From: Candidatus Hodarchaeum mangrovi
GTDB taxonomy: Archaea > Asgardarchaeota > Heimdallarchaeia > Hodarchaeales > Hodarchaeaceae
Reading direction: 5' to 3'
Assembly (NCBI GenBank): GCA_016839515.1
Contig: JAEOUE010000209.1
Location: forward strand, 9,326 to 73,325
Length of the DNA stretch: 64,000 bases
Below, piece after piece: positions 2,356-18,678 of the stretch. Below the pieces are notes generated by a model. That model was not told the origin of the DNA, did no database searches, and was given only the letters and a program-made list of their open reading frames with translations. The position numbers were made by a program, and so were the translations under genes. Positions within the stretch are counted from its first letter, which is position 1; the number at the start of each line of letters is the position of its first letter.

Positions 2356-2967
2356 TTAATCTTTCTTAATTTTTTCTAGTTCTTTTTGTAGCTCTTGAGA
2401 ACGAATATCTGGCGTTGGAAGCCCAAAATCTGCTGTAGCTACTTTTGAGGCACTAATTTCACCAATTATTTTTTCCACCATTTCATCTTCTTCAACATCA
2501 GAGGTCATCATTTCAAATCCCTCATCCATTGCATCAGTAGCAATATCAATTCTTTCGGTTTCTATCTCCATTTGTTGAAGAACTCCCTCTAATTGGGGGA
2601 TTTTCAGCTGAGTATTCATTTGATGAAGTGCTCTTACTAATCCTCTCAAGTCTTTTCCAATTGCTTGAGTTGCTGCTGCTTGTTCGAGTTTAAATTTAAT
2701 AGCTTTTACCCGGCTAGCCATCTGTTGGCATCCTCGGGCCATGGTACGATTTTTGGCTACATCTTTGGCTAATAAACGGGCGGTAGTCATATCTCCATCT
2801 TCGACAGCTTTTTCTACTTCCTTCAACATCTGTCTTTCTTCTTTAATCAGCTTATTTCGTTGGCGTGTCATTCTTTTTTCAACCATTCGAAGACGAACTA
2901 TCCACTTGCGTGTGTTTGTAGAACGATCTCCACCTCTAAGCCAGTTCCCGAATTTATCAAATACCAT
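2356..2967 (-). CDS. ESCRT-III, Vps2/24/46 class (ESCRT-IIIA)
   Basis: Basic N-half, acidic C-half; ARLLAKDVAKNR motif; C-terminal LPTP plus MIM1-like ELQKELEKIK. Confidence 0.92.
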   Translation of the reverse strand: MVFDKFGNWLRGGDRSTNTRKWIVRLRMVEKRMTRQRNKLIKEERQMLKEVEKAVEDGDMTTARLLAKDVAKNRTMARGCQQMASRVKAIKFKLEQAAATQAIGKDLRGLVRALHQMNTQLKIPQLEGVLQQMEIETERIDIATDAMDEGFEMMTSDVEEDEMVEKIIGEISASKVATADFGLPTPDIRSQELQKELEKIKKD

Positions 2968-2969
2968 TA

Positions 2970-3641
2970 TTAAGACCTCAATCCTTCTTCAATTTGTTTT
3001 CGCATTTCTTCCAATTTTTTCTTATCAGCTTCTTTGGTTGCAGAACTTTGAGTGCCTGTAGAGGAACTAATTGGAGAAGACACTGCTGGTTCTTTTTTTT
3101 CCTTAATAAATGATTCAGAAGCAATTTCAGCTTCTAATTCAGCCATTTGTTGAGAAATACGGTCTTCAGCTTCTACATCCATCCCAATTTCGGTAATAGA
3201 GGTATCTGTAAGTGCTTCATCCATATCTGAAACCATTTCGATTGAATCCTCTAATGCCATCATAACTTCCTCTGTTCGTTCTGGAGAAGCTGCAGCGATA
3301 TTAGCATCTATGGATGTTTGAGCATCAGATAGGGTCTGAGTAAGGGTTACATTATCTGCTGAAATATCTAGTGTATCTATCGTTCGTTGAAGATTTGAAA
3401 TTTTATTATAGCTGCTTGTTACTTGTGTTAAATATAATTCACGTCTTTTTAACGCTTGTTGAGCACCTTGTTTATTACCGCCCCTAAGTAGTGTTCGTGC
3501 AAGGTCATGTTGCTCATCTGCTTGGCGCTGATAATTTTTTATCTTAACTTCCATTTGATTAATCGTTCGTTTAAGCTTTGCCTTAGTTTCGGTTGAGCTT
3601 GAAGGTTTTTTTCCAGTTAAGAATCCTTTAATTCTTTTCAA
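2970..3641 (-). CDS. ESCRT-III, Vps20/32/60 (Snf7) class (ESCRT-IIIB)
   Basis: GNKQGAQQALKRRELY Snf7 signature; charge-bipartite coiled coil; TTG start. Confidence 0.92.
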   Translation of the reverse strand: MKRIKGFLTGKKPSSSTETKAKLKRTINQMEVKIKNYQRQADEQHDLARTLLRGGNKQGAQQALKRRELYLTQVTSSYNKISNLQRTIDTLDISADNVTLTQTLSDAQTSIDANIAAASPERTEEVMMALEDSIEMVSDMDEALTDTSITEIGMDVEAEDRISQQMAELEAEIASESFIKEKKEPAVSSPISSSTGTQSSATKEADKKKLEEMRKQIEEGLRS

Positions 3642-3856: not shown

Positions 3857-4591
3857 TCAAATTGCAGGGAACGAAATGGTTAATCCATCAAGGGAATCGG
3901 ATTTAATTGCAATACGCTGCTTTATTAGAGAATCTAACGCATTATTAACCCTTTCTATAGTCCATGAGGTTTTTCTCAACAATTCAGATAATCCAATCTC
4001 ACCATTATATTGAGCTGCGAGTTCTAATATCACTTGGTGATCATCAGATAGTTTTGGATCCAAAAATTCAACAATTTTTATTCCAGCTAGTTTTTTAATT
4101 GCATGTATCATTCCATTTTCTTCAAGCATCTTCAGGGCAGAATTCATATCATTTATTGAGATTGTAATCCCTTTACTTTCATCATTAAGTCGTGTAAGCA
4201 ATTCAGAAACGCTTAATAATCCTCCAGTTTGAAGCCTTGTGTTTTTCCCAATTTCTATAATTCTTAGGCTTAAATAATTCAGATAATCATCTTTTCCCTT
4301 TAATTTATCTATTATCCCTGGTTTTTTCCCTACCTCATAGATTCCAAGAGCTTGTGGAAGACCTAACTCCTCTCGAATTATCATTAGACGTTGAGCCAAT
4401 TGTGGATTTTTCTTGAAATCTCCTTCATAGGTTTTTTCCAATTTTTGAAGCTCATCATGAAGCTGATGGACTTTTTGACTTAATTCTTCAAGGGATTTAA
4501 GCGCAAGTTTTGTACCTTTTCTTTTCAATTCAGCTTCTTGTGTGATTTTCTCTTCAATTCTTCGTAATCCCATTGGTTTAGCATTCCTCAT
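3857..4591 (-). CDS. vps22: ESCRT-II subunit Vps22/EAP30 homologue
   Basis: GLRRI N-terminus, DYLNYLSLRIIEIG, TGGLLSVSEL, LSDDHQVILELA, WTIERVNNALDSL. Confidence 0.92.
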   Translation of the reverse strand: MRNAKPMGLRRIEEKITQEAELKRKGTKLALKSLEELSQKVHQLHDELQKLEKTYEGDFKKNPQLAQRLMIIREELGLPQALGIYEVGKKPGIIDKLKGKDDYLNYLSLRIIEIGKNTRLQTGGLLSVSELLTRLNDESKGITISINDMNSALKMLEENGMIHAIKKLAGIKIVEFLDPKLSDDHQVILELAAQYNGEIGLSELLRKTSWTIERVNNALDSLIKQRIAIKSDSLDGLTISFPAI

Positions 4592-6300: not shown

Positions 6301-6930
6301 TTATAGATTGGTTAATTCCCGTCTGAAATTTGATAACCAACGGGACGCCTGTAATTCAAGTTTTTTAAGCTCATCAGTCTTTAATAATTGACCTGGTTTT
6401 TGGCGATCCATCCAACCAATCCATTGACTTATATCTTGAGTTACCCAATGATCTTTTCCATATATTTTAAGATTAGTTAATATAGATGCTAATTCATCTA
6501 AATATGGTAATATTCGATCTACTGTTGCAATTGCCTCTAAATGTAGTAAATCTAGGAGTTCGATTGTATTGGCCACAAAATCAGCAGCAATTGCTGGCAA
6601 TCTTTTTATTTGGCTATAATCGATTTGATTCAACGGATTATCAGCATCACCTTCAGTTCTTCGTACTTTTTCTAAACCGAAAGGAAATTTGGACTCCATT
6701 GCCTCTTTTTTGATGAAATCATCCAAATTGAAATGGTATTGGTCTAGTGCTGCCCGAGTTTCAACAATACTGGATAAAAGGTTTTTGAATTGCTTATGAT
6801 AGATATTTGGATCAATTTCACCTTTCTCAAATGTTCGTGAAAGAAGATCAAGTGTACCAATATCAGCATAAAGTCTAGCTTCTAGTTCCCATCGTTTCTT
6901 TAAATTCGGTGGAAAGGTCATTTGTGTCAT
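6301..6930 (-). CDS. vps28: ESCRT-I subunit Vps28 homologue
   Basis: ARLYADIGTLDLLSRTFEKGEIDPNIY and FVANTIELLDLL..VDRILPYLDEL match the Vps28 N and C domains; coupled to vps23. Confidence 0.9.
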   Translation of the reverse strand: MTQMTFPPNLKKRWELEARLYADIGTLDLLSRTFEKGEIDPNIYHKQFKNLLSSIVETRAALDQYHFNLDDFIKKEAMESKFPFGLEKVRRTEGDADNPLNQIDYSQIKRLPAIAADFVANTIELLDLLHLEAIATVDRILPYLDELASILTNLKIYGKDHWVTQDISQWIGWMDRQKPGQLLKTDELKKLELQASRWLSNFRRELTNL

Positions 6931-6931
6931 C

Positions 6932-7666
6932 TTATCCTATATAATCAAGTTCTTTTCGGATTAAGTATAAGTCTTTGGAATATTTTTTATACAGACGGGA
7001 ATATTCAAAAATTGATATTTCTCCAGCTGCATAACGATCCTCAAGAGAGGCTAATAATTCAGAAATTGCTATACGTTCTGATTCTAAATCGTCCTTGGTT
7101 GATCTTTGGGGTCGTTTTTCCTCGCCTAAACTTTCAGTTTGAACCATCTGTCGTGCGCGCAATCTCGCTAGCTCTTCTTCTTTTTCCTGTAGAGTTTGGT
7201 TTAAATTGATGAGTTCTTTGCGTAACGAATCGGTCTCTGCATTAACTGTAGGTTCGATATAACGAGGAGGTGACTCTGTGATTTTGATTACAGTATCCCG
7301 TACGGATCTAGCAGTTTCACCACGTGGAGCAGGTGGAACACGGGACATTAGATTTTTCAATGCTATTATAACTTGATATAAATGAAATTCCGCCCGCCAA
7401 TTTTCTAAGATTCGTAATTGAACAAATCCATCCTCATCGATATTTGGATGATCCATCCAACCCACTGCTGTGACAACAGGAGGAACATTAGGAAAATATT
7501 CAGGTAGAAATATCTCAAAGGTGAACATATTTCGACCACGACTCGTTGTATATGTCAAAGTGCCTTGCCATTTGGCAAGAGAATCCTCAACAGGATTGAA
7601 ACCTGATGCAGCAGTGTTGGAATAAACTAATTGTGCTTCACGCGCGAGTATAAAGTCTCTATCCAT
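6932..7666 (-). CDS. vps23: ESCRT-I subunit Vps23/TSG101 homologue (UEV + coiled coil + steadiness box)
   Basis: E2-like fold IFLPEYFPNVPP..HPNIDEDGFVQL lacking catalytic Cys; coiled coil; steadiness box LEDRYAAGEISIFEYSRLYKKYSKDLY. Confidence 0.92.
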   Translation of the reverse strand: MDRDFILAREAQLVYSNTAASGFNPVEDSLAKWQGTLTYTTSRGRNMFTFEIFLPEYFPNVPPVVTAVGWMDHPNIDEDGFVQLRILENWRAEFHLYQVIIALKNLMSRVPPAPRGETARSVRDTVIKITESPPRYIEPTVNAETDSLRKELINLNQTLQEKEEELARLRARQMVQTESLGEEKRPQRSTKDDLESERIAISELLASLEDRYAAGEISIFEYSRLYKKYSKDLYLIRKELDYIG

Positions 7667-7891: not shown

Positions 7892-9133
7892 TTAATTTTT
7901 CTTTTTTAAAGGATTTGCTAGGAAATTTAATAATTCTTGTCCTAAAAGTTCAAATGCATATTCGATATTTAACCCTGTCTTTGCACTTGTTGGGAGATAA
8001 TAGATTTTAAATCCTCGATATTGCTTTGAAATTTGTGATAAACGACCAACAAAAATTCTTGCTTTTTCTTCAGAGACACAATGAATTGTACCATCGCAAA
8101 GATCAGTTTTATTTCCAAGAATCACAAGTGGGACAGGACCACGTCCATTACTCTTCCAGAGCTCATTCATCCATAAAACAATATTCTGAAAACTATCAGG
8201 TCTGGTAACATCAAATACGGCAAGTGCTCCAATTGCTGTAGTATAATAAGCCATACGAACTCCATCAAACCGTGGTTGCCCTGCTAAATCCCAGATTACG
8301 TATTTAATTCTTTTCCCACCAGCATAAATCAAAGATGATTTTTTTACTGCCAAATCGGCCCCAATAGTCATTTGATAATCATGTCGAAAGCCTTCTCCAA
8401 GATAATGTCTACGAATGGATGTTTTCCCAACAGCACCATCACCAATTAATATTATTTTTAGAGTGTGCTCTTCTTGGACAAAATTGGCTTTTGCAGACTC
8501 TATTAACTGCTCTAATGCTCTACTTAATTCCTTATTAATTGAAGGTATTTGCTCTGGATAAAGCTTCAAGACTTCAACAATCTGGAAAGCTAAAGGAGCT
8601 GCTTTATCACGTGGTACAAATTTAGAGGTTATGATTGAAATAATAAAATCTTGAATGATGAAGAAATGTATCGTTTGATTTTCAAGGGAAAGTTCCTCAA
8701 GCATTTTACCTAATTTGTGATGAACATAATTATTAATTGCATTTAAGATAAAACCAGTAGTTTCTTTATAATCGTTGCTAACCTCAGAGGGAAATTCAAA
8801 TAAACATTTGCCATTCTGTTTGTAGCAGGAAATGAAATGAATTTCTTCTACTTTTTCTGGTTTTTCTAACCCAAATTTGCGAAATTCCTCTATTTCTTTT
8901 TTACTAGCCATTTCCCCCTCTGAATAAACAGTTTGCAATAAATTTAAATAATCGCTACGTCCTGACAATGCTTCTTCCAAATCAACTTGAATTTTTAACT
9001 GAAACTCTTCCATTTCACTGGCAATTGATTCGTCTAAAACTCGGTCTTCTAGAGATTGTTTCTTTTTTCTTTGTAAAGTATTAAAGGACGAGAGTTTTTC
9101 TTTCATTGACCGAATTCTCCGGAGTTTTTTCAA
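7892..9133 (-). CDS. Longin-domain / Rab-like small GTPase fusion
   Basis: G1 GDGAVGKT, G2 YQMTIG, G3 WDLAGQ, G4 NKTD, G5 TSAK; RabF-like IGADL/KYVIW/YYTTA/VFDVT; central longin-like segment. Confidence 0.85.
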   Translation of the reverse strand: MKKLRRIRSMKEKLSSFNTLQRKKKQSLEDRVLDESIASEMEEFQLKIQVDLEEALSGRSDYLNLLQTVYSEGEMASKKEIEEFRKFGLEKPEKVEEIHFISCYKQNGKCLFEFPSEVSNDYKETTGFILNAINNYVHHKLGKMLEELSLENQTIHFFIIQDFIISIITSKFVPRDKAAPLAFQIVEVLKLYPEQIPSINKELSRALEQLIESAKANFVQEEHTLKIILIGDGAVGKTSIRRHYLGEGFRHDYQMTIGADLAVKKSSLIYAGGKRIKYVIWDLAGQPRFDGVRMAYYTTAIGALAVFDVTRPDSFQNIVLWMNELWKSNGRGPVPLVILGNKTDLCDGTIHCVSEEKARIFVGRLSQISKQYRGFKIYYLPTSAKTGLNIEYAFELLGQELLNFLANPLKKKN

Positions 9134-9288: not shown

Positions 9289-10356
9289 TTATTTACCTTT
9301 TAAAAAAACTGACTCAATTTTTGTAAACAACCAAGGGATAATTAGAGCTAAAGTAAAAGCTAAAATGAAATAAGAGCAATAGTCTACTAAAGTACTCACC
9401 CAAGGTACTATACTTTGAGAATTTTCAAATAATCCAGAAACCTTATCCGTAAAAAAGTAAAGTAATACAACTGAAGTGAATCCTATAATTATTCGTATGA
9501 GTAAACTTACTGGTTGCCTTCCATAGATTTTAAAATTAATATATTGGTCTTCAAAAACCTTTCCAACTATAATTCCACCAAAGATACCAGGGTACACTCC
9601 TAAATCACTGTTGTTCCAAAGATCTGTAACGAGTGCACTTCCAAATAGAAAAGTAGTTAAATAAACAACTCCAAATCCTAGAATAACTAAGATTATACTA
9701 CTTAAAAAGCCCAAAAATATCTTTACTTTGTCTGATTTTTGTGTATAATAACTTCCATATCGCTTATCAATTTGAACATACAATAAAGCTACCAGAATAC
9801 CAACGACAACTCCAATAATTATATCACTAGGCCAATGTACACCTAAATAGCTTCTACTGAGAGGTATGGATATTAATAATACTAATCCTAAAACTAGAAT
9901 TGAAAAATTCCTATATTTCTGGAAAACAAATCCCCATAAGGTTCCTTGAGTTTGAGAATGTCCAGAAGGAAATGAATATCCACTAGCACTCCACGTAGTT
10001 TCTCGTAATATTTGTGTAGTAACCTTAAATTTCTCATCATATATATAAGGACGAGGATTATGAAAAAATATCTTCAATATTGAGTTTAAACAAGCTGATA
10101 ACGTAATTAGATAAATTATTTTTAACATATATTCCTTATTATAAGTATAATAGAGTAGTACCATTACTATAAGAATTGGTAGTGTATTTCCAAATGTGGT
10201 TACAACTCCAAAGTAAAAATCTATAATATCATTAGAAAAGCTTTGAATAAATTCGAGTATTTGTTCACCAAATAAACCAAGGATTAGATCAGACAATTTA
10301 TCACAGCCTTTTATTGCTTTGACACTGAAAATTCTTTCAAAACGCTCAATTACCAT
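9289..10356 (-). CDS. PAP2-family membrane lipid phosphatase
   Basis: KIFFHNPRP, FPSGH and SRSYLGVHWPSD catalytic motifs; multiple TM helices. Confidence 0.92.
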   Translation of the reverse strand: MVIERFERIFSVKAIKGCDKLSDLILGLFGEQILEFIQSFSNDIIDFYFGVVTTFGNTLPILIVMVLLYYTYNKEYMLKIIYLITLSACLNSILKIFFHNPRPYIYDEKFKVTTQILRETTWSASGYSFPSGHSQTQGTLWGFVFQKYRNFSILVLGLVLLISIPLSRSYLGVHWPSDIIIGVVVGILVALLYVQIDKRYGSYYTQKSDKVKIFLGFLSSIILVILGFGVVYLTTFLFGSALVTDLWNNSDLGVYPGIFGGIIVGKVFEDQYINFKIYGRQPVSLLIRIIIGFTSVVLLYFFTDKVSGLFENSQSIVPWVSTLVDYCSYFILAFTLALIIPWLFTKIESVFLKGK

Positions 10357-10582: not shown

Positions 10583-11329
10583 ATGTCAGAATCTGAATCA
10601 TTAGTTTGCCCTAATTGTAGTGAACGAAGTCCTGCAGGATATATTCTTTGTCCTTATTGTGGATTCGATTTGACTAAGATTGTTAAAGCCGCCCAACGAG
10701 TCCGAATAACTTTTAAAGAAAGCTTTTCTCGTATTTGGAGAGGATTTTTTGACCCTCGTCAAAGTAAAGGACTATTCAATGAGGTTGGGGCTAATCCTGA
10801 CAGAAGAGGGGCAATTTTAACTTTAATACTGGTATCAATGGCTTATGCGAGTCGAATTGGAGTTTATGCTATTAAAGTCTCAAGCACCACCTGGCATGAT
10901 TTTCATTTCTGGTATGCTTTATTTTTTCCATTTGTTGTCTGGCCTGCCTTCTTTTTATTAGCTCTTTTTGCTTGGTTTATCCTTAGTACTGCTATATGGC
11001 TTCTGGCAAAAACTTTAGGGGGAAAAGCAGGATATCGGGAAACAATGAGCGTTGTTGGCTACTCAGTAAGTCCACTTATTTCTGGATCACTCATCATCAG
11101 TCTTATTATTGTTCTTATCGGACCACCAATCAGTAGTATAACCTCAATAACTTCAGATCAATTCATACTTTTCGAATTTTTATATCTCCCATTCATTGCT
11201 TTGGCTGCTTACCATTGTGGAAACGGATTAAGGGCATCCCATCTTCTAAGCGAGCCATATTCCTACTCAATTAGTGGTTTAATGGCATTATTATTTATTA
11301 TCTTCTATCTACTCCCCTTGATACTGTAA
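10583..11329 (+). CDS. Yip1-family membrane protein with N-terminal zinc ribbon
   Basis: CPNC...CPYCG; about 5 TM helices; LAKTLGGKAGYRETMSVVGYSVSP Yip1 motif. Confidence 0.85.
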   Translation: MSESESLVCPNCSERSPAGYILCPYCGFDLTKIVKAAQRVRITFKESFSRIWRGFFDPRQSKGLFNEVGANPDRRGAILTLILVSMAYASRIGVYAIKVSSTTWHDFHFWYALFFPFVVWPAFFLLALFAWFILSTAIWLLAKTLGGKAGYRETMSVVGYSVSPLISGSLIISLIIVLIGPPISSITSITSDQFILFEFLYLPFIALAAYHCGNGLRASHLLSEPYSYSISGLMALLFIIFYLLPLIL

Positions 11330-11383: not shown

Positions 11384-12379
11384 TTAATTCAGATATATTT
11401 TAAATTTTAATGGCATTGGGATTGAAGGATCAATCACCCGAAATATTTCTCCGTTATGAAATTCAGTTCCCATTAGTGCATCTGTTATAACCATATGTTG
11501 GGTTTCGTACAGGATTTTTATTTCAAGCCCAAGATTAAAAGAATATCTTAATTGTTCAATAAAATCAGAAAATCTTTGATCTTTAGAAGAATAAACTGGT
11601 ATAATGTCTAAATGATAGGTATCGGAGCATACAAAACATGTTTTTCTCCTTTTGAGTGGTACAGATGTGAATTGACCAGATTCTCCGTCCCAAAATAAGA
11701 AATTATTCATTGTTGGGATGCCATTGATAATTTTTAAGGCCTCTTGTGCCATTAATCCTCCAATGACTAACGAGACACTGGATACAGATGGGATAAATTT
11801 TTTTTCTTCAACCACCTCCCGAATTTCCTTTCTTCCCTCACCAAAAGGTGTACAAGCTTTTTGTAGCTCCTGTTCTGGGATTAAAGATTGACATTCTAAA
11901 CACGGGGTATGATAAGGAATGACAACTTGGATATTACCGAGGAATCCATACATTCCTCCAGATATCAAAGGAATTTTTGCTTTCACTGTGAACGCATTTA
12001 ACCATCTACGAACTTTAAATGTATCTAATCCTTCAACTATAACATTAGATGTTGTTAAAAGATCATGAGGTACTTTTTCAATTGCATTTTTTATTACTTC
12101 AATCTCAATAGAAGGATTTATGGCTCTCAGTGCTTTAGCGGCAACATTTACCTTCGGTTTTCCAACATCATCCTCATAATAGAAAAGTTGCCGATTAAGG
12201 TTACTTACTTCAATTGTGTCAAAATCTATCAAAATTAATTTTCCTACTCCAGCCATTGCAAGTGAAGCAGCAACAACTGTTCCTAGAGCTCCAAGACCAA
12301 CAATAGTAACTGTACTTTCTTTTATTCTTGTTTGGTCCCAATTTTCAATCAATAATTGACGTGCATAGCGATCAGTCAT
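11384..12379 (-). CDS. Ubiquitin-activating enzyme E1 (ThiF/UBA family)
   Basis: RYARQ, GLGALG, SNLNRQ, Zn motifs CLEC/CFVC, catalytic-Cys motif KACT, C-terminal UFD-like region; follows ubiquitin. Confidence 0.92.
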   Translation of the reverse strand: MTDRYARQLLIENWDQTRIKESTVTIVGLGALGTVVAASLAMAGVGKLILIDFDTIEVSNLNRQLFYYEDDVGKPKVNVAAKALRAINPSIEIEVIKNAIEKVPHDLLTTSNVIVEGLDTFKVRRWLNAFTVKAKIPLISGGMYGFLGNIQVVIPYHTPCLECQSLIPEQELQKACTPFGEGRKEIREVVEEKKFIPSVSSVSLVIGGLMAQEALKIINGIPTMNNFLFWDGESGQFTSVPLKRRKTCFVCSDTYHLDIIPVYSSKDQRFSDFIEQLRYSFNLGLEIKILYETQHMVITDALMGTEFHNGEIFRVIDPSIPMPLKFKIYLN

Positions 12380-12423: not shown

Positions 12424-12663
12424 CTACCTTTTCCCACCAGTGGTTCGTGTAATCATGTACAGCTTATCATGTTCTTGAATCCCAGCTGTCTTTAAAGTTT
12501 CGCTCTCATCAAGTTGTTTTCCTTGAAAGACTAGAATAACGGTTCCTGGAGGGATTCTATTTTCACTAGCAACTCTTCTTTTAATTGCTGCTATAGAATC
12601 AGTCATTTCACATTCAAGAGGTATTTCTCTACCGCCAATTGCCTGAACAATAGTGATTTGCAT
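12424..12663 (-). CDS. Ubiquitin (pro-form, GG followed by KR)
   Basis: MQITI...IPPGTVILVFQGKQLDESETL..GIQ..RTTGGKR; ATG at 12663 is the likely start (GTG at 12672 possible). Confidence 0.93.
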   Translation of the reverse strand: MQITIVQAIGGREIPLECEMTDSIAAIKRRVASENRIPPGTVILVFQGKQLDESETLKTAGIQEHDKLYMITRTTGGKR

Positions 12664-12800
12664 GTTCTTCACTCAAATATTCGCATTGTAAAAGATTTGT
12701 GAGTTACACTTCATCTCTGCCTTTTAAAATATATGGAATGGGGTACACAAATTATATACTAAATAACTCTATCGAATTTTTTCTAATCGAAAGGATAGAT

Positions 12801-13589
12801 TTAATCATCTTCTGGTTCAATAAAACTGATTCCATCATTTGTAATTTCATAGCGTAGAGTTTTAGTCGTGTGATTAGTACCACGCATCTTAGTGATTCGA
12901 AGGATTCGCATCATTTCCCCACGAACAGAAAGCATATCAAGATGAAAAATAGAATCGGCAATATACTCTTCTCCAAACAAGGTATGATCAGAGGTACTTG
13001 ATAATTCTGATATTGCTATTGTAGTAACGTTTAAGGCAGCAATATTTGCCAAAAATCCAGTTGCTAATTTTCTTAAAAAACCATAGTCATTTCCATAATC
13101 ATAAAATCTAAATGCAGCTAGGGGATCTATTACTATTCGTTCAATTTTCTTTTCCTCTACTTTTTGGGATATTAAATAAAAAATTTTATGTAAGAAAGTA
13201 GGTAATGATGTCTCATCATAGGGAACCCCTTCTACATCCAACATCAATTCAGTATCCTCACTATACGAAAGACTATCAGGATCCCATAATTCCCATCCAG
13301 ATGGCGTAAAGTCAAGCATGATTACTTTTTCAGGTTCTGCAAAATAATTGTGATCGAAAAAAGAAAAAGAACTTGCATCTCGTCGTATAGCCCATGGTGG
13401 TTCTTGCATTGCTACTAATAATCCATTTTCATTTCGACGAGCTCCATCAAAGAGAAAATGTAATCCAAAAATTGTCTTACCTGCTCCTGCAGGTCCTATT
13501 AGCAAATTAGTAGTTCCTTTGATAAAACCACCTTGAGTATAAGCATCAATAAATGGTATTCCTGTTGTTACGCGCACACGTTCAAACAA
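12801..13589 (-). CDS. KaiC/RAD55-family ATPase (single domain)
   Basis: RVTTGIP, GPAGAGKT, RIVID, EEYIADSI, ITKMRGT. Confidence 0.92.
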   Translation of the reverse strand: MFERVRVTTGIPFIDAYTQGGFIKGTTNLLIGPAGAGKTIFGLHFLFDGARRNENGLLVAMQEPPWAIRRDASSFSFFDHNYFAEPEKVIMLDFTPSGWELWDPDSLSYSEDTELMLDVEGVPYDETSLPTFLHKIFYLISQKVEEKKIERIVIDPLAAFRFYDYGNDYGFLRKLATGFLANIAALNVTTIAISELSSTSDHTLFGEEYIADSIFHLDMLSVRGEMMRILRITKMRGTNHTTKTLRYEITNDGISFIEPEDD

Positions 13590-13757: not shown

Positions 13758-14321
13758 TCACTTTTGATAGTTAATATTCTGCTTACTAGCTTCTAGCTGT
13801 TCAATAAAGTACCGAAATGCTGATTCCAAATTTTCACCACTTCTTATTCCACCAGGATCAGCTGCTACTGTTCCAAAAATAAAGTAGTTTCTCTTTTGAA
13901 GTTTTTGAAGTAAAAAATGCCTTTTAAAAAAGTCTGGATATAGAGCATTTGGTAAATCTTGCTTATTAGCTATAATAAGAATCGGTATATTTTCAGAAAT
14001 AAGTTCCAACGCATCTTGTAGCCATTGTTCATCATATTTAAAATCACGACGGGAACTGTCAATAACAAAGACCAATCCATCTGCGTTTTTGACAAATCTT
14101 TCATGATAACGCATATCTAGGAATTTCCTCTGACCCCCAACATCAATTAAACTGATAACTGATCCATCTAAAACAACATGACTAATTCCGAAAGCAATTG
14201 TAGGCCTGATGTTGCTAGGTGGAGGATAACCATGCTCAAGATAAAATGCGATGGAAGATTTACCTACACCACTAGTTCCTAATAAAACAACTGAATAAAT
14301 TGTTTTAGATGGTAATTCCAT
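13758..14321 (-). CDS. Arf-related small GTPase
   Basis: GTSGVGKS, PTIAF, DVGGQ, ANKQDLP; no Gly2. Confidence 0.88.
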   Translation of the reverse strand: MELPSKTIYSVVLLGTSGVGKSSIAFYLEHGYPPPSNIRPTIAFGISHVVLDGSVISLIDVGGQRKFLDMRYHERFVKNADGLVFVIDSSRRDFKYDEQWLQDALELISENIPILIIANKQDLPNALYPDFFKRHFLLQKLQKRNYFIFGTVAADPGGIRSGENLESAFRYFIEQLEASKQNINYQK

Positions 14322-14554
14322 ATATATATTATCCTGTCTGTTGCCTTTTTCAAGAAAGAAGCAAAAAAATCTAGATTTTAGAGACGAAACATTAAGTCAA
14401 AGATTTATACGTTTTAATCAGGTTTTTAAGTTTAAAAAACTGACTAAATATTTTTGTACCGATAAATCACAAAAAAAGCTTTTTTAGGTATACTTCTAAC
14501 TTCATTTCACAAGATTTATGAGTTTGTATTAGAAAAAATAATATGTGAATTTTA

Positions 14555-14947
14555 ATGCCTGATGATACTCGAGAAATCGAGATTGAATCTCTGAAAACTC
14601 CAAAAGGTGATGTTCCAACAATAAAAGGATTGGAAACAGCGTTGAATGCAACTTATAATGATTTCAACAGTATAAATACTTCGTTATCACAAATTAATAA
14701 ATCTATTACAAGTATTTTTGAAAAATTGGAATTCTATAATACTCAAATGAAAGAATTAAGTGAATCAATTACAAAATTAGTTGTTTATTTAGCAAAATTG
14801 GAAGCATCTATTGATAATACCCAAGATCTAACTCAAAAGCACTTATTCATAGAAAAAACTGATTTAATAGCTTTAAAAAATGATTTAGCTGGAATACTAG
14901 AACAATTACAACATGAGGTGTTCAGAAAATCCATTCAAGAAAAATAA
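14555..14947 (+). CDS. Hypothetical coiled-coil protein
   Basis: 130-aa ORF with long heptad repeat; first gene of an apparent 3-gene operon. Confidence 0.7.
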   Translation: MPDDTREIEIESLKTPKGDVPTIKGLETALNATYNDFNSINTSLSQINKSITSIFEKLEFYNTQMKELSESITKLVVYLAKLEASIDNTQDLTQKHLFIEKTDLIALKNDLAGILEQLQHEVFRKSIQEK

Positions 14948-15246
14948 TTATAAAAAAACGCACAATTGAAAAAGCACCTTCAAAAAAAACTATTTTTTTA
15001 CCAAAATCAGGATTTTTAAATTCTTTAAATAATGATATAAAATTAAAATCTAGGACTATTGGAGACTGGAATCCCTTTTCTCAACCTCAACAATGTATGA
15101 TTTGTTGGAAGCCTGTTGAAGTTGAAGGAAAAGATATACGGAATCATATGCAATGTAGGCATTGCCATCGAATAGCTCACAGAGATCATCTCCTTCAATG
15201 GCTTGAAAAAAAAGATTATTGTCCTGTCTGCAAAGGAAAATTGTGA
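14944..15246 (+). CDS. RING-finger E3 ubiquitin ligase candidate (missed by ORF track; non-AUG start)
   Basis: Open frame 14917-15246 encodes ...CMICWKPVEVEGKDIRNHMQCRHCHRIAHRDHLLQWLEKKDYCPVCKGKL*; no ATG/GTG/TTG upstream of the first Cys; start uncertain (ATA 14944 or ATC 14929). Confidence 0.85.
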   Translation: MIIKKRTIEKAPSKKTIFLPKSGFLNSLNNDIKLKSRTIGDWNPFSQPQQCMICWKPVEVEGKDIRNHMQCRHCHRIAHRDHLLQWLEKKDYCPVCKGKL

Positions 15247-15248
15247 GA

Positions 15249-15698
15249 ATGAACGTTAATCTACCTGGACTTATTAAAGAAATCATTTCAGATATTGAAA
15301 ATCTCTTGAATAAAATGAATTTTGATCGAGGCCTAGTAAAACCAGTTAAAATTAGAAGATCACATAATAATATTATTGTAACATGGAATATATTCCCTTC
15401 TTCAACTCATATTGGCATATATACAAATCTTCAAGAAATAATTTCAAAAAATTTGTTTAATATCAATGGAGAAATTTTATCATACAATATTACGGAGGGT
15501 TTAATTACTGATCATACTCATCATACCTTTAATGAATTTTTGATCCATCAAGGATCTAATTGGGATATCTATCTCTATGATCCTGAAATTTTTATATATA
15601 TACGGTTGATTATTGAGTCGAATATAAAAACGGTGGATAAAAAATGGATTTCGCTTGATATTGACGTCATTGAGAAATCAGCTTGGTTTTTAGAATAA
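15249..15698 (+). CDS. Hypothetical protein
   Basis: ATG 2 nt after the RING stop; 149 aa; no recognisable motif. Confidence 0.65.
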   Translation: MNVNLPGLIKEIISDIENLLNKMNFDRGLVKPVKIRRSHNNIIVTWNIFPSSTHIGIYTNLQEIISKNLFNINGEILSYNITEGLITDHTHHTFNEFLIHQGSNWDIYLYDPEIFIYIRLIIESNIKTVDKKWISLDIDVIEKSAWFLE

Positions 15699-15709: not shown

Positions 15710-16657
15710 TTATATGATCTTCCATCTTAGTGAATGAGATTCATATTCAACTAAACCTTCATTTTCTAACTCTCTGAGAAAAGCTGTGGCAGTTGTTTCT
15801 TCAACCCCTAATTCATCAAAAGGTGTGTTCCAGTCAATACCGAGAATCTTACAAAATTCCTCCGCTATATAACGAATTTTTGCCTCCCCAACACTTAACA
15901 AGACATCATAAATAGTATCTTTTGTGTGTTTATGCTCAAAAGTCAGATTATGGACGTATAAGTCAAATGGTTTTGGTACAGGACTTTGGTGAGTTGGACA
16001 AATATTCTCTGTTTTGATTTTACTCAATAGGTCCAAGACTTTGGCTCGTTTCATAGAGCTTCCTGTATTATCGATGAAAAAAGCAGAGTAATTTTCTGGA
16101 TAAATGTTTCCTTCATCTCCGATGAATGTACATTCTCCCCTGTAAGCTTGAATAATTATGGAATCGGCAGAATGTCCACCAGTATGTTGTAATATTAATT
16201 CCTCCCCACCAAGATCAAGGGTTTCACTTTTATTAAAAGTATATACTAATTCCTCCTTTACTTTACCAATTTTGGATAAGAGAGAAGACTTCATTGCTAA
16301 ATTAAATTTTGAAACAAAAGGAAATTGCTTCTCTAAAATGAACTTTTGGCCCTCTTTCAAAGCTTCTAATCCTAATTCATGAACCCAAACTTGTGGTTTT
16401 ATTTCAGCAAAAGCATTCATACCAGCCCAATGATCAGGATGAGTATGAGTTAAAATTAGATATGAAATTTCTCCCGGATCCCGACCTGCTTTCTTAATGT
16501 ACTTGATGATCTCCTTTCCAATCGAATGTGAAGGAATATCGATAACTGCGATCTTTTCATCACCTAATATTAAATAACTAGAGAATAATTCGCCTTTTTT
16601 TCCTTTGTCACCAATTACTTGATATATTCCTGATACCCATTCAATAAATTCTACCAT
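15710..16657 (-). CDS. Metallo-beta-lactamase-fold hydrolase
   Basis: THTHPDH, TGGHS, GD and PTH motifs; C-terminal wHTH-like tail. Confidence 0.9.
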   Translation of the reverse strand: MVEFIEWVSGIYQVIGDKGKKGELFSSYLILGDEKIAVIDIPSHSIGKEIIKYIKKAGRDPGEISYLILTHTHPDHWAGMNAFAEIKPQVWVHELGLEALKEGQKFILEKQFPFVSKFNLAMKSSLLSKIGKVKEELVYTFNKSETLDLGGEELILQHTGGHSADSIIIQAYRGECTFIGDEGNIYPENYSAFFIDNTGSSMKRAKVLDLLSKIKTENICPTHQSPVPKPFDLYVHNLTFEHKHTKDTIYDVLLSVGEAKIRYIAEEFCKILGIDWNTPFDELGVEETTATAFLRELENEGLVEYESHSLRWKII

Positions 16658-18207: not shown

Positions 18208-18678
18208 CTAATGCTCTTGGCTCCAATGAGCATATTGTTTTACATACTCAACAGCTTGTTTTTTAAAACTAATTGGATCTCTTTTCCACATTCTTGCAGC
18301 GGCACCGTTCAAGGGATCATCTGGATTTGGGGCATTTAATAGAAAGCGTATTGTTTCTATTACTTGAACTAGACTATATGCAGGACTCCATTCTTTCCCA
18401 AGGATACCAACACAAACTTTCTCTTTGAATATATTTACGTGCCATATGGGTGTTTTAAAACGAATATGGGGTGGTTCATATGGATAACGGCGTGGTATCT
18501 TAATTTCGATTAAAAAAACTCCTCCTTCATATAGTCCAGATCCTAAGATTTCTCCACGCCAATGGGTTAAATCATTATTCACTGTTCGGAAGGTAGGTTG
18601 TTCTCTTGTTAGTTCTTGGGCCTCAATAGCTAAACGGTCAAGCCATTCTTCTTCAGTAAGCATTTTTAAAATCGTCAT
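18208..18678 (-). CDS. Ubiquitin-conjugating enzyme E2
   Basis: YEGGVF, YPYEPP, TPIWHVNI, catalytic VCVGIL, WSPA, PNPDDPLN. Confidence 0.95.
   Translation of the reverse strand: MTILKMLTEEEWLDRLAIEAQELTREQPTFRTVNNDLTHWRGEILGSGLYEGGVFLIEIKIPRRYPYEPPHIRFKTPIWHVNIFKEKVCVGILGKEWSPAYSLVQVIETIRFLLNAPNPDDPLNGAAARMWKRDPISFKKQAVEYVKQYAHWSQEH

Follow-up and report, generated by a model that had tools for sequence, protein, structure and literature searches.

The window analyzed here, a stretch of 64,000 nucleotides of DNA from Candidatus Hodarchaeum mangrovi, contains an ESCRT and ubiquitin gene cluster of the Hodarchaeales type, in which components of ESCRT-I/II/III and Vps4 are encoded along with ubiquitin, an E1-like enzyme and an E2 (Table 1). 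The UEV/E2-like protein encoded beside VPS28 is likely to be UEV-Vps23. Embedded in this cluster is a compact operon of three genes, which encode a coiled-coil protein, a small RING finger protein and a 149-aa protein; the RING gene is located 2.2 kb from the ubiquitin gene, 2.5 kb from the E1 gene and 3 kb from the E2 gene.

Table 1. Features of the RING operon and the surrounding ubiquitin/ESCRT genes (positions in the window)
Feature	Position	Strand	Remarks
UEV/E2-like protein, 244 aa, beside VPS28	6935..7666	-	Pfam UQ_con E 1.6e-14, residues 23-109
E1-like enzyme (ThiF family)	11384..12379	-	Pfam ThiF E 1.5e-63
Pro-ubiquitin, end ...TTGGKR	12424..12672	-	Pfam ubiquitin E 3.8e-14; translation
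Coiled-coil gene, operon gene 1, 130 aa	14555..14947	+	stop overlaps RING gene start
Shine-Dalgarno-like site GAGGTG	14915..14920	+	GGTG begins 12 nt before A of ATC
Inferred RING gene start, ATC codon	14929..14931	+	same position as start codon of orthologs
Small RING finger gene	14929..15246	+	105 codons from ATC, then TGA stop
RING domain, ligand 1 to ligand 8	15094..15231	+	invariant columns of alignment A2
Third operon gene, 149 aa	15249..15698	+	confident alpha/beta model; no Pfam family
E2 (UBC fold), HVN...C active-site motif	18208..18678	-	Pfam UQ_con E 7.3e-35; translation

The frame of the RING gene (14917-15246, forward strand) follows an in-frame TGA (14914-14916) and is translated without interruption into a sequence that ends with QQCMICWKPVEVEGKDIRNHMQCRHCHRIAHRDHLLQWLEKKDYCPVCKGKL at the TGA stop codon. 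The list of ORFs represents this frame only by a 49-aa ORF (15097-15246). The gene remained uncalled because the earliest ATG, GTG or TTG past the upstream TGA, at 15097, encodes the Met of CMIC and so falls behind the first Cys of the RING finger. The initial annotation had recognized a RING motif in the uncalled frame, and the translation indeed contains the motif string quoted there. The tight packing that it described is also borne out: the RING frame and the coiled-coil ORF ahead of it (14555-14947) overlap, and the ATG of the next gene (15249) lies 2 nt past the RING stop (15244-15246). The probability of an open run of 109 codons arising by chance at the base composition of the window (32% GC) is about 3e-4, and the RING motif itself is far beyond chance expectation; judging from the sequence, this is a genuine RING-type gene.

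The first approximately 45 residues of the RING protein are predicted to be disordered; a conserved IGxWNPF motif comes next, ahead of the RING domain. Counted from the ATC, the metal ligands of this domain are C56, C59, C76, C79, H84, H87, C98 and C101, with the spacing C-x2-C-x16-C-x2-C-x4-H-x2-H-x10-C-x2-C, a C4H2C2 pattern that represents a variant of C3H2C3/C3HC4; the domain also carries I58, W91, P99 and K102. In the alignment of the window protein with 14 orthologs (A2), 15 columns are invariant, including I58, W60, W91, L92 and P99 as well as all eight ligands, in agreement with the eight metal ligands and conserved Trp assigned previously. The E2-contact set of active RING E3s (I58, W91 and P99) is thus invariant, and in the window, the basic K102 follows ligand 8; the orthologs have R, K, Q, H or N at that position. 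Between ligands 7 and 8, the window carries a V, in contrast to the Y of the 14 other sequences. The His of CRH and the His after the fourth Cys are variable in the family (N in L015 and L002) and therefore are not ligands.

The Pfam family zf-RING_2 (PF13639) matches the window protein with 26.9-27.0 bits (E 5.5e-6 to 5.9e-6; curated cut-off, 27.3) and all 15 family members at E <= 1e-3 (best, 8.1e-7), whereas no PHD family was found in the window protein at E <= 0.01. In the AlphaFold2 model, the mean pLDDT values of the consecutive ten-residue blocks across residues 51-100 are 79, 72, 87, 92 and 92. Among the best Foldseek rows, almost every match is to a RING or a RING-like zinc-finger domain (probability 1.00), although, owing to the small size of the domain, the E-values reach no better than 0.007-0.08; the rmsd for Ring1B, RNF165 and a chain of entry 3lrq is 1.5-1.8 Å over 50-54 residues. 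The modeled fold is that of a RING. The best matches in the PDB profile search were the RINGs of Listerin (E 0.0018-0.0036) and Arkadia/RNF165 (E 0.004-0.012), and the PDB sequence matches are all RINGs. Listerin (Ltn1) and the window RING agree in the C-x2-C...C-x2-C-x4-H spacing and in the L-x-x-W...C-P-x-C-R tail, except that Listerin has a Cys at the position of the second His of the window family; on RNF165, the model superposes at 1.6-1.8 Å over 50-51 residues. Unlike the small protein in the window, these eukaryotic proteins are large multidomain E3s; the E-values are marginal and no orthology is implied. A C4H2C2 finger with four residues between ligands 4 and 5 has, over ligands 3-5, the spacing of PHD/C4HC3 fingers, unlike that of the classical C3H2C3 RING; however, ligand 6 of the window RING is His, in contrast to the C4HC3 set of PHD fingers.

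Orthologs of the RING protein were detected in at least 19 further genomes of the same genus (E 5e-20 to 5e-33), in alignments that start at query residues 4-16, far upstream of the internal ATG, and RING/coiled-coil pairs are found across the phylum. That annotation had called the gene hidden, which is correct in that the gene is missing from the ORF calls owing to its ATC start, but this is not an overlooked novel gene because most genomes of the genus carry a normally started ortholog. The closest ortholog among the matches listed, L002, is only 46% identical, so that synonymous sites are saturated. The other earlier claim, that the RING completes an E1-E2-E3 cascade, is not supported in this form: E1, ubiquitin and E2 are indeed encoded no farther than 3 kb away, but the cascade would not otherwise lack an E3. 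No fewer than three additional RING matches are present in the genome, one of them belonging to a paralogous RING/coiled-coil pair on contig C247 that has a normal ATG.

All 14 orthologous loci examined contain the same three genes in the same order. At each of these loci, the RING start is located 2-3 codons past an in-frame stop and overlaps the end of the coiled-coil gene. The distance from the RING stop to the start of the third gene ranges from -14 to +41 nt. The coiled-coil protein has a conserved N-terminal motif (REIEIESLKTPKGDVPTIKGLET) and 19 invariant columns in alignment A4 (15 sequences). Its family is present in 94 of the 301 genomes of the phylum, and at 14 of 20 loci sampled phylum-wide, the coiled-coil gene has a RING ORF no more than 300 nt away, in three different orientations. 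No name could be assigned to this protein from Pfam, which gave only sub-threshold coiled-coil families, or from the ESM Atlas, where only unnamed clusters were found (at 0.85-0.86). The PDB profile search yielded generic coiled coils and heptad repeats of viral fusion proteins; Vip3, an entry named in the available part of the preprint of Lu et al. (bioRxiv 10.1101/2023.07.25.550441), was absent among the best 60 matches.

The 149-aa protein, whose family is represented in 35 of the 301 genomes of the phylum, had no match in Pfam, and the ESM Atlas result (0.76) was uninformative. Its AlphaFold2 model has a pLDDT of 88.6 and a pTM of 0.84. Structural comparison with VIA-align produced matches to PA1624 (Z 8.3), DcrB (7.8), PA94 (7.6), SciW (7.2), Mog1 (6.2) and PsbP (5.8), which we take to represent a single fold class; best Z values of 7-8 are typical of models without a clear match, and the Foldseek TM scores do not exceed 0.44. 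The model probably adopts a Mog1/PsbP-like fold. A thioesterase hot-dog fold was discounted given that the respective Foldseek rows were weak (TM 0.2-0.3).

The conserved gene order makes it plausible that the two flanking proteins are partners of the RING, and the split multi-subunit E3 suggested by the initial annotation is a hypothesis based on this synteny. Complex prediction for the coiled-coil and 149-aa proteins with the RING as the partner, run as three chains on 15-row alignments and without controls, yielded scores of 0.03 and 0.00, where the mark is 0.32; this is evidence neither way.

Small RING E3s of Asgard ubiquitin/ESCRT clusters have already been published and biochemically tested, and the window RING adds one member to this set. 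According to the available part of the Lu et al. preprint, the RING E3 of a Helarchaeial cluster ubiquitylates UEV-Vps23 in vitro. Like the Asgard RING E3 described there, the window protein is small, has a non-globular N-terminal region and is encoded next to a coiled-coil gene (asCOG005522 in the preprint), with ubiquitin, UEV-Vps23, ESCRT genes, E1 and E2 in the neighborhood. The adjacency of a RING gene to an uncharacterized coiled-coil gene in an ESCRT/ubiquitin neighborhood holds for the window and the 14 orthologous loci, the likeness to asCOG005522 being one of description; a full-text literature search for asCOG005522 returned only this preprint. There are also differences: the part of the preprint available gives neither a RING E3 nor a coiled-coil gene for Hodarchaeia, the activity reported is that of a Helarchaeial protein from another branch of the family, and the window has a third, Mog1/PsbP-like gene translationally coupled to the RING gene as well as the ATC start. 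Term searches of the text of the ESCRT preprint of Makarova et al. (PMC11188069) and of Hatano et al. (PMC9192718), as far as these were accessible, found no discussion of a RING E3.

The second relevant comparison is with srfp, the small RING protein of Candidatus Caldiarchaeum subterraneum, which, in the portion of the report available (PMC5654768), is required for E1/E2-dependent ubiquitylation and is impaired by mutation of I30, W58 or R69. Both proteins are encoded with ubiquitin, E1 and E2, and both carry the same key residues, with Ile following the first Cys, Trp following ligand 6 and a basic residue following the last Cys; the I30, W58 and R69 of srfp correspond to I58, W91 and K102 of the window RING. 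In both organisms, ubiquitin is encoded as a pro-form with a tail beyond GG (PMC5654768). At 105 aa, stand-alone and close to the ubiquitin, E1 and E2 genes, the window protein has the placement of an srfp-type RING. However, srfp is described as a RING-H2 finger (C3H2C3, with a possible extra Cys; PMC5654768), in contrast to the C4H2C2 pattern with x4 between ligands 4 and 5 found here, and the window RING, which is likened to srfp by description, sits within an ESCRT cluster beside two conserved partner genes.

The start codon sets the window apart from its relatives. Among the 14 orthologous loci examined, the RING gene starts with ATG in 13 and with GTG in one (L012). In DNA alignment A1, the GAAAATC of the window lies opposite the GAAAATG of the ten orthologs aligned there, once the ungapped register of MAFFT is moved by one base, as we read it. 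The GAGGTG sequence ends 8 nt ahead of this ATC (14929), the spacing preferred in this genome: upstream of 1463 unambiguous ATG starts, the position of GGTG peaks at -12 to -9, and an SD-like 4-mer is present at -18..-4 of 576 of these starts, compared to 84 of 1463 in a control window. The Shine-Dalgarno site before the ATC is stronger than those of the orthologs. An assembly error was rejected as the source of the ATC because contigs from three other studies (runs X3, X4 and X5) have the same letter at 14931 and no indel; X4 comes from another strain, which differs by three SNPs at other positions of the stretch, and X11 leaves 14624-15001 uncovered. A +1 frameshift from the out-of-frame ATG at 14913 was also dropped because, in the junction alignment, the homology of the RING frame begins at the ATC; the ATG at 14913 belongs to the conserved coding sequence of the coiled-coil protein. 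Translation in this species would begin at the AUC (14929), placed by the strong Shine-Dalgarno site. No RNA data set was listed as containing the stretch, a result that carries no information on expression. Archaeal aIF1 disfavors non-AUG starts, as described in the accessible portions of two reports (PMC6237735, PMC8211752), and the output from the AUC is therefore probably low; lacking a canonical start, production of the RING protein in this species may be very low or nil.

Taken together, these observations are probably best explained by a genuine small RING protein of about 105 aa, a member of an Asgard-wide C4H2C2 family encoded beside a coiled-coil partner and the product of the middle gene of an operon in a Hodarchaeales-type ESCRT and ubiquitin cluster, which would act in an E3-like manner and be translated from an AUC start. 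By analogy, the protein would function like the tested archaeal small RING E3s, binding the charged local E2 via Ile58, Trp91 and Pro99, with Lys102 keeping E2~Ub closed. Ubiquitin would then be passed to a target in the ESCRT/trafficking machinery, for which UEV-Vps23 provides a precedent; analogy with the Helarchaeial reaction, as reported in the part of the preprint available (bioRxiv 10.1101/2023.07.25.550441), makes the UEV-Vps23-like protein of the window a candidate substrate. One or both flanking proteins may serve as an adaptor or a scaffold. This reading involves no new type of system; with it, the Hodarchaeales-type cluster gains a candidate RING ligase, accompanied by two conserved partner genes.

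A less likely reading, which nevertheless deserves serious consideration, is that the gene is decaying, such that ATG was lost to ATC, little useful RING protein is made, the frame is still intact because the loss is recent, and the pair on contig C247 or other RINGs cover the function. Decay would fit the ATC at the orthologous start position, fixed as it is in the contigs of the three other studies, and the availability in the same genome of a second RING/coiled-coil pair with a normal ATG. The divergence of the RING points in the same direction: in the columns where exactly one of the 15 sequences differs, the window is the sole deviant in 5 of 13 cases in the RING (M1I, E to Q, Q to R, R to Q, and Y to V in CPYC), compared to 0 of 8 in the coiled-coil gene and 1 of 11 in the third gene (5/13 vs 1/19; Fisher p 0.029, or 0.06 without the start codon), and the mean identity of its RING domain to the others is 54%, below the 57-63% of four comparably divergent lineages. 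The excess of deviations and the lower identity are compatible with relaxed constraint. However, none of the eight ligands or E2-contact residues has been lost, the 109 codons contain neither a stop nor a frameshift at 32% GC, the Shine-Dalgarno site has the optimal spacing and surpasses those of the orthologs, the surrounding operon is intact with the third gene still abutting the RING stop, and GTG, a weaker start, is already used by one ortholog. Depending on which of the two readings is correct, the ATC start is a small regulatory curiosity or a sign of early gene decay.

Compared with the preferred reading of an E3-like protein, there is only a small chance that the domain is a RING-fold zinc finger without ligase activity, for instance a structural or adaptor element that tethers the coiled-coil protein and the Mog1/PsbP-like protein, or else a reader of the PHD type, while other E3s would transfer the ubiquitin. 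The C4H2C2 pattern with its four-residue gap between ligands 4 and 5, a spacing found in the Listerin RING and in PHD/C4HC3 fingers, could be taken to suggest such a role, and several of the best structural rows are non-catalytic RINGs of the GATOR2/SEA complexes. Conversely, the E2-contact Ile, Trp and CPxC Pro are kept as in active RING E3s, as is the basic residue that follows the last Cys (PMC5654768, in the portion available), the Pfam match is to zf-RING_2, with no PHD match at E <= 0.01, ubiquitin, E1 and E2 are encoded nearby, and the related RING E3 of an Asgard cluster is active in vitro (bioRxiv 10.1101/2023.07.25.550441, in the part available). Least probable is a -1 ribosomal frameshift within the 31 nt shared by the two genes (14917-14947), on GAA-AAA before the TAA, the product of which would be a coiled-coil/RING fusion E3 of approximately 230 aa. 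Relative to the coiled-coil ORF, the RING is indeed read in the -1 frame, the A-rich overlap terminates in GAA AAA TAA, and a -1 shift on A-AAA-AAT has been documented in one archaeon (PMC8211752, in the portion accessible). However, the zero frame of the overlap contains no canonical X-XXY-YYZ heptamer, and 12 of the 14 orthologous RING genes have their own start and occupy the +1 frame relative to the coiled-coil gene, whereas L005 has another frame and L013 the same frame with a stop between the genes. Given these frame relations and separate starts, a fusion is no conserved design, and the deviating frame relation in the window is due to small indels upstream of the start.

A more elaborate version of the E3-like reading, which we consider rather doubtful, is that the coiled-coil, RING and Mog1/PsbP-like proteins make up a ubiquitin ligase of three subunits dedicated to the Asgard ESCRT/trafficking machinery, in which the disordered N-terminal arm and the IGxWNPF motif of the RING would dock onto the partners, the partners would pick the substrate (UEV-Vps23 or a neighboring small GTPase), and AUC initiation from a strong ribosome-binding site would, in this species, keep the ligase subunit scarce; if true, no archaeal ubiquitin ligase before this one would have been found under the control of a near-cognate start codon. 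Regardless of the mechanism, gene calling that depends on the start codon can lose such a gene. Phylum-wide, the pair can be recognized by two signatures, namely a C4H2C2 pattern preceded by GxW in the RING and IKTPxGxVPTV in its coiled-coil partner.

On the forward strand of the window, the frame 14917-15246 runs for 109 codons without a stop between two TGA triplets (14914-14916 and 15244-15246), an open run with a chance probability of about 3e-4 at the composition of the window (32% G+C); its C-terminal sequence is QQCMICWKPVEVEGKDIRNHMQCRHCHRIAHRDHLLQWLEKKDYCPVCKGKL. The encoded protein matches Pfam zf-RING_2 with an E-value of 5.9e-6 and 26.9 bits (cut-off 27.3), and this domain is matched by all 15 members of the RING family. 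Together with the invariance of the zinc ligands across the 15 aligned sequences, this bears out the RING that the initial annotation had placed here. The only listed ORF in this frame is one of 49 aa (15097-15246), and the earliest ATG, GTG or TTG encodes the Met within 'CMIC', downstream of the first zinc ligand, which accounts for the absence of the gene from the ORF track. The frame was thus hidden, as originally noted, because ATC occupies the conserved start position.

The search for homologues among Asgard relatives that the initial annotation had suggested was run in six frames against the window's own genome and 40 relatives (41 in total). Clear orthologues were detected in a further 19 genomes from the window's genus (E-values from 5e-20 to 5e-33); two others of this genus, G006 and G020, matched at the level of the RING domain only (3e-7 and 5e-7), and more distant genomes matched solely via the RING domain of other proteins. 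The orthologue alignments begin at query residues 4-16, which shows that the 55 codons preceding the internal ATG are coding. At the 14 loci examined, the orthologues are 70-117 aa long and start with ATG in 13 cases and GTG in one (L012), mostly 2 or 3 codons past an in-frame stop and typically with M-[NS]-P. In the MAFFT alignment of the DNA junction, the window has GAAAATC where the orthologues have GAAAATG, after a one-base shift of the ungapped register that was read by eye and is not aligner output. The protein alignment of the window RING with 14 orthologues (A2) concurs, with Met1 of the orthologues opposite an Ile encoded by ATC; because the two alignments agree, ATC (14929-14931) is assigned to the position of the start codon of the others.

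This stretch is present in 20 listed sequencing runs from 8 studies, and contigs from four runs of four studies, distinct from the two possible source runs, were compared with the window. The contigs from runs X3 (14401-15175) and X5 (14685-15357) cover position 14931 with zero differences; in run X4, one contig spans the whole stretch, with the listed differences confined to 14549, 14665 and 15030, 14931 unchanged and no indel; run X11 does not cover 14624-15001. An assembly slip at the ATC is ruled out by the X3, X4 and X5 contigs, none of which carries another letter or an indel at 14931, and the ATC is a property of the species in several places. Upstream of it lies GAGGTG (14915-14920), in which GGTG begins at -12. 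Within the same genome, a Shine-Dalgarno (SD)-like 4-mer occurs at -18..-4 of 576 of the 1463 unambiguous ATG starts, compared with 84 of 1463 in a control window, and GGTG positions peak at -12 to -9; the orthologues have weaker versions at the same place (GTGA, GGTGA). The predicted ribosome-binding site of the RING gene is intact and strong. Archaeal aIF1 is described as selecting against non-canonical start codons (PMC6237735, PMC8211752). Initiation at AUC is predicted to be poor, yet the codon should be pre-positioned through SD pairing.

Fifteen columns are invariant in A2 (W47, C56, I58, C59, W60, P62, C76, C79, H84, H87, W91, L92, C98, P99 and C101), and the ligand spacing in the family, C-x2-C-x12-16-C-x2-C-x4-H-x2-H-x10-C-x2-C, is C4H2C2. 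The motif string first reported for this frame holds for the eight ligands and the Trp, whereas its two further His vary among the orthologues and are therefore excluded as ligands. Residues I30, W58 and R69 of the small RING protein of Caldiarchaeum, mutations of which are described as impairing in vitro E1/E2/E3 ubiquitylation (PMC5654768), have their counterparts in Ile58, Trp91 and the basic residue that follows the last Cys. In the AF2 model, residues 1-21 and 30-37 are disordered, and the mean pLDDT over successive ten-residue blocks of 51-100, which encompass the RING, is 79, 72, 87, 92 and 92. The sole difference within the RING gene among the compared contigs, T>G at 15030 in X4, lies in the disordered N-terminal arm and turns an Asn codon (AAT) into Lys (AAG). 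The best Foldseek matches are almost all RING or RING-like zinc fingers (Ring1B, RNF165, gp78, RNF126, HRD1, APC11, the GATOR2 RINGs and arenavirus Z protein), the closest with rmsd of 1.5-1.8 Å across 50-54 residues; the E-values are weak (0.007-0.08) because the domain comprises only about 50 residues. In a profile search with A2 against sequences of solved structures, the top match was the RING of the ribosome-quality-control ligase Listerin (0.0018 and 0.0036), followed by Arkadia/RNF165. Listerin shares the unusual C-x2-C...C-x2-C-x4-H spacing of the Asgard family, and this spacing alone may account for the marginal match (E-value of 0.002).

The gene most likely encodes a functional small RING E3 that belongs to the ESCRT/ubiquitin system but is weakly initiated. 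The main alternative is a recently disabled RING copy. Neither the frame nor any key residue has been lost, but the window is the sole deviant in 5 of the 13 RING columns in which exactly one of the 15 sequences differs. These are the start codon, a Q for E ahead of the third Cys, Q-to-R and R-to-Q changes around the pair of His ligands and the Trp, and, within CPYC, a V for Y at what we take to be an E2-contact position. In the coiled-coil gene the window deviates in this way at 0 of 8 such columns, and in the third gene at 1 of 11 (one-sided Fisher p = 0.029, or 0.06 if the start codon is left out). Furthermore, the mean identity of the RING domain to the others is 54% for the window vs 57-63% in four lineages with equally divergent flanking genes. 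These deviations and the lower identity suggest, to a modest degree, that constraint is relaxed or altered, and it is mainly for this reason that decay, although unlikely, is given appreciable weight.

The order coiled-coil gene, RING, third gene is retained in all 14 orthologous loci. The coiled-coil gene (126-135 aa) comes first and its 3' end overlaps the RING start, except in L013, where its stop lies 9 nt upstream; the third gene (148-160 aa) starts between -14 and +41 nt from the RING stop; in 7 loci the distance is at most 4 nt, and in the window the gap is 2 nt. Given this order, the flanking proteins may reasonably be regarded, as initially proposed, as putative adaptors or scaffolds of the RING. 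A phylum-wide profile search detected the coiled-coil family in 94 of the 301 genomes sampled (28 of 70 genera). The open frames of 20 loci from the upper part of the match list, namely a second copy in the window's own genome and 19 loci from other genera, were searched with profiles made from the RING and coiled-coil alignments. In 14 loci, an ORF matching the RING family profile (E-values from 1e-9 to 2e-18) is found no more than 300 nt from the coiled-coil gene, with RING then coiled-coil, coiled-coil then RING, and divergent arrangements; in two others, the coiled-coil gene is at a contig end, and in four, no RING ORF was found within the stretch examined. Strict C4H2C2 spacing is present in 12 of the 16 ORFs matching the RING profile, and Glu replaces ligand 6 in two. 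The remaining two (L034, 4052-4702, and L037, 4047-4778; genomes G122 and G130, family f25) are 217-244-aa ORFs between a small RING and the coiled-coil gene that may be RING-GTPase fusions, with an N-terminus matching the RING profile (E-value of about 1e-9) and a C-terminal NKxD-like small-GTPase motif, IANKQDL. An IKTPxGxVPT[VIL]-type motif is found near the N terminus of 13 of the 20 coiled-coil proteins. The second pair in the window's own genome (contig C247, locus L028, 2105-3188, minus strand) consists of a 136-aa RING, also C4H2C2, that starts normally with ATG, and, after it, a coiled-coil protein of 213 aa carrying IKTPEGQVPTV; this contig is only 3.3 kb long.

The third gene has no Pfam family. 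Its confident model (pLDDT 88.6, pTM 0.84) comprises alpha-beta-beta-alpha followed by five strands, and an exhaustive structure search returned PA1624 (Z 8.3), DcrB (7.8), PA94 (7.6), SciW (7.2), MTC28, LppA, LpqN, Mog1 (6.2) and PsbP (5.8) among the top matches, presumably one Mog1/PsbP-like fold class of protein-binding modules; assignment of the third gene to this fold is tentative because Z of about 8 is the stated background level of the tool. Members of this family are present in 35 of the 301 genomes sampled (18/20 in family f1, 1/2 in f2, 5/5 in f12, 3/3 in f18, 1/1 in f22 and 6/6 in f23). In the window's genus the third gene directly adjoins the RING; the separation is 2-3 kb in two f18 genomes and about 5 kb in one f22 genome, and in those f12 and f23 genomes that could be placed, the gene is elsewhere or on another contig. 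Thus, the association with the RING is real, though less tight than for the coiled-coil gene.

As judged from the predicted genes, the window contains an Asgard ESCRT and ubiquitin cluster. The ubiquitin tail continues past the di-glycine, which implies a processing protease. The claim that the RING completes the E1-E2-E3 cascade is overstated: the genome has other RINGs, including that of the normally started, paralogous C247 pair. In Aigarchaeota and Asgard archaea, genes for small RING proteins alongside those for ubiquitin, E1 and E2 are described as established, and the Caldiarchaeum cascade as reconstituted (PMC5654768). Lu et al. describe Asgard clusters in which UEV-Vps23 and ubiquitin are accompanied by a RING E3 and by asCOG005522, a coiled-coil-like protein that is uncharacterised and to which the window coiled-coil partner may correspond; they also describe a Helarchaeial E1/E2/RING E3 set that ubiquitylates UEV-Vps23, aided by the E3 N-terminal loop (bioRxiv 10.1101/2023.07.25.550441). 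The Hodarchaeia set, as presented in the accessible part of that preprint, consists of UEV-Vps23, ubiquitin, Yip1 and a Rab-like GTPase, without a RING; the window likewise has a Yip1-domain protein and a Ras-family GTPase. Set against that description, the window gene is a further member of the known module and probably extends it to another lineage.

Predicted genes of the ESCRT and ubiquitin cluster and its surroundings in the window
Feature	Position	Strand	Remarks
Vps25-like	325-1128
Vps4	1156-2313
Snf7, two genes	2359-3641
EAP30	3860-4591
Unnamed gene, 448 aa	4951-6294
Vps28	6304-6930
UEV/E2-like, 244 aa	6935-7666
Ras-family GTPase	7892-9133
PAP2	9289-10356
Yip1	10583-11329
E1	11384-12379
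Pro-ubiquitin	12424-12672	-	tail TTGGKR, two residues beyond di-glycine
KaiC/RecA-like ATPase	12801-13589	-	E-value 2.7e-41
Arf-like small GTPase	13758-14321	-	E-value 1.2e-19
Coiled-coil/RING/149-aa operon	14555-15698
Metallo-beta-lactamase-fold protein	15710-16657
Unnamed gene, 338 aa	17170-18186	+	no Pfam match at E ≤ 0.01
E2	18208-18678		HVN...C motif
ORF, 99 aa	18909-19208	+	no Pfam match at E ≤ 0.01
ORF, 239 aa	19770-20489	+	no Pfam match at E ≤ 0.01

The genes for the KaiC-like ATPase and the Arf-like GTPase, located between ubiquitin and the RING operon, are divergent from the operon.
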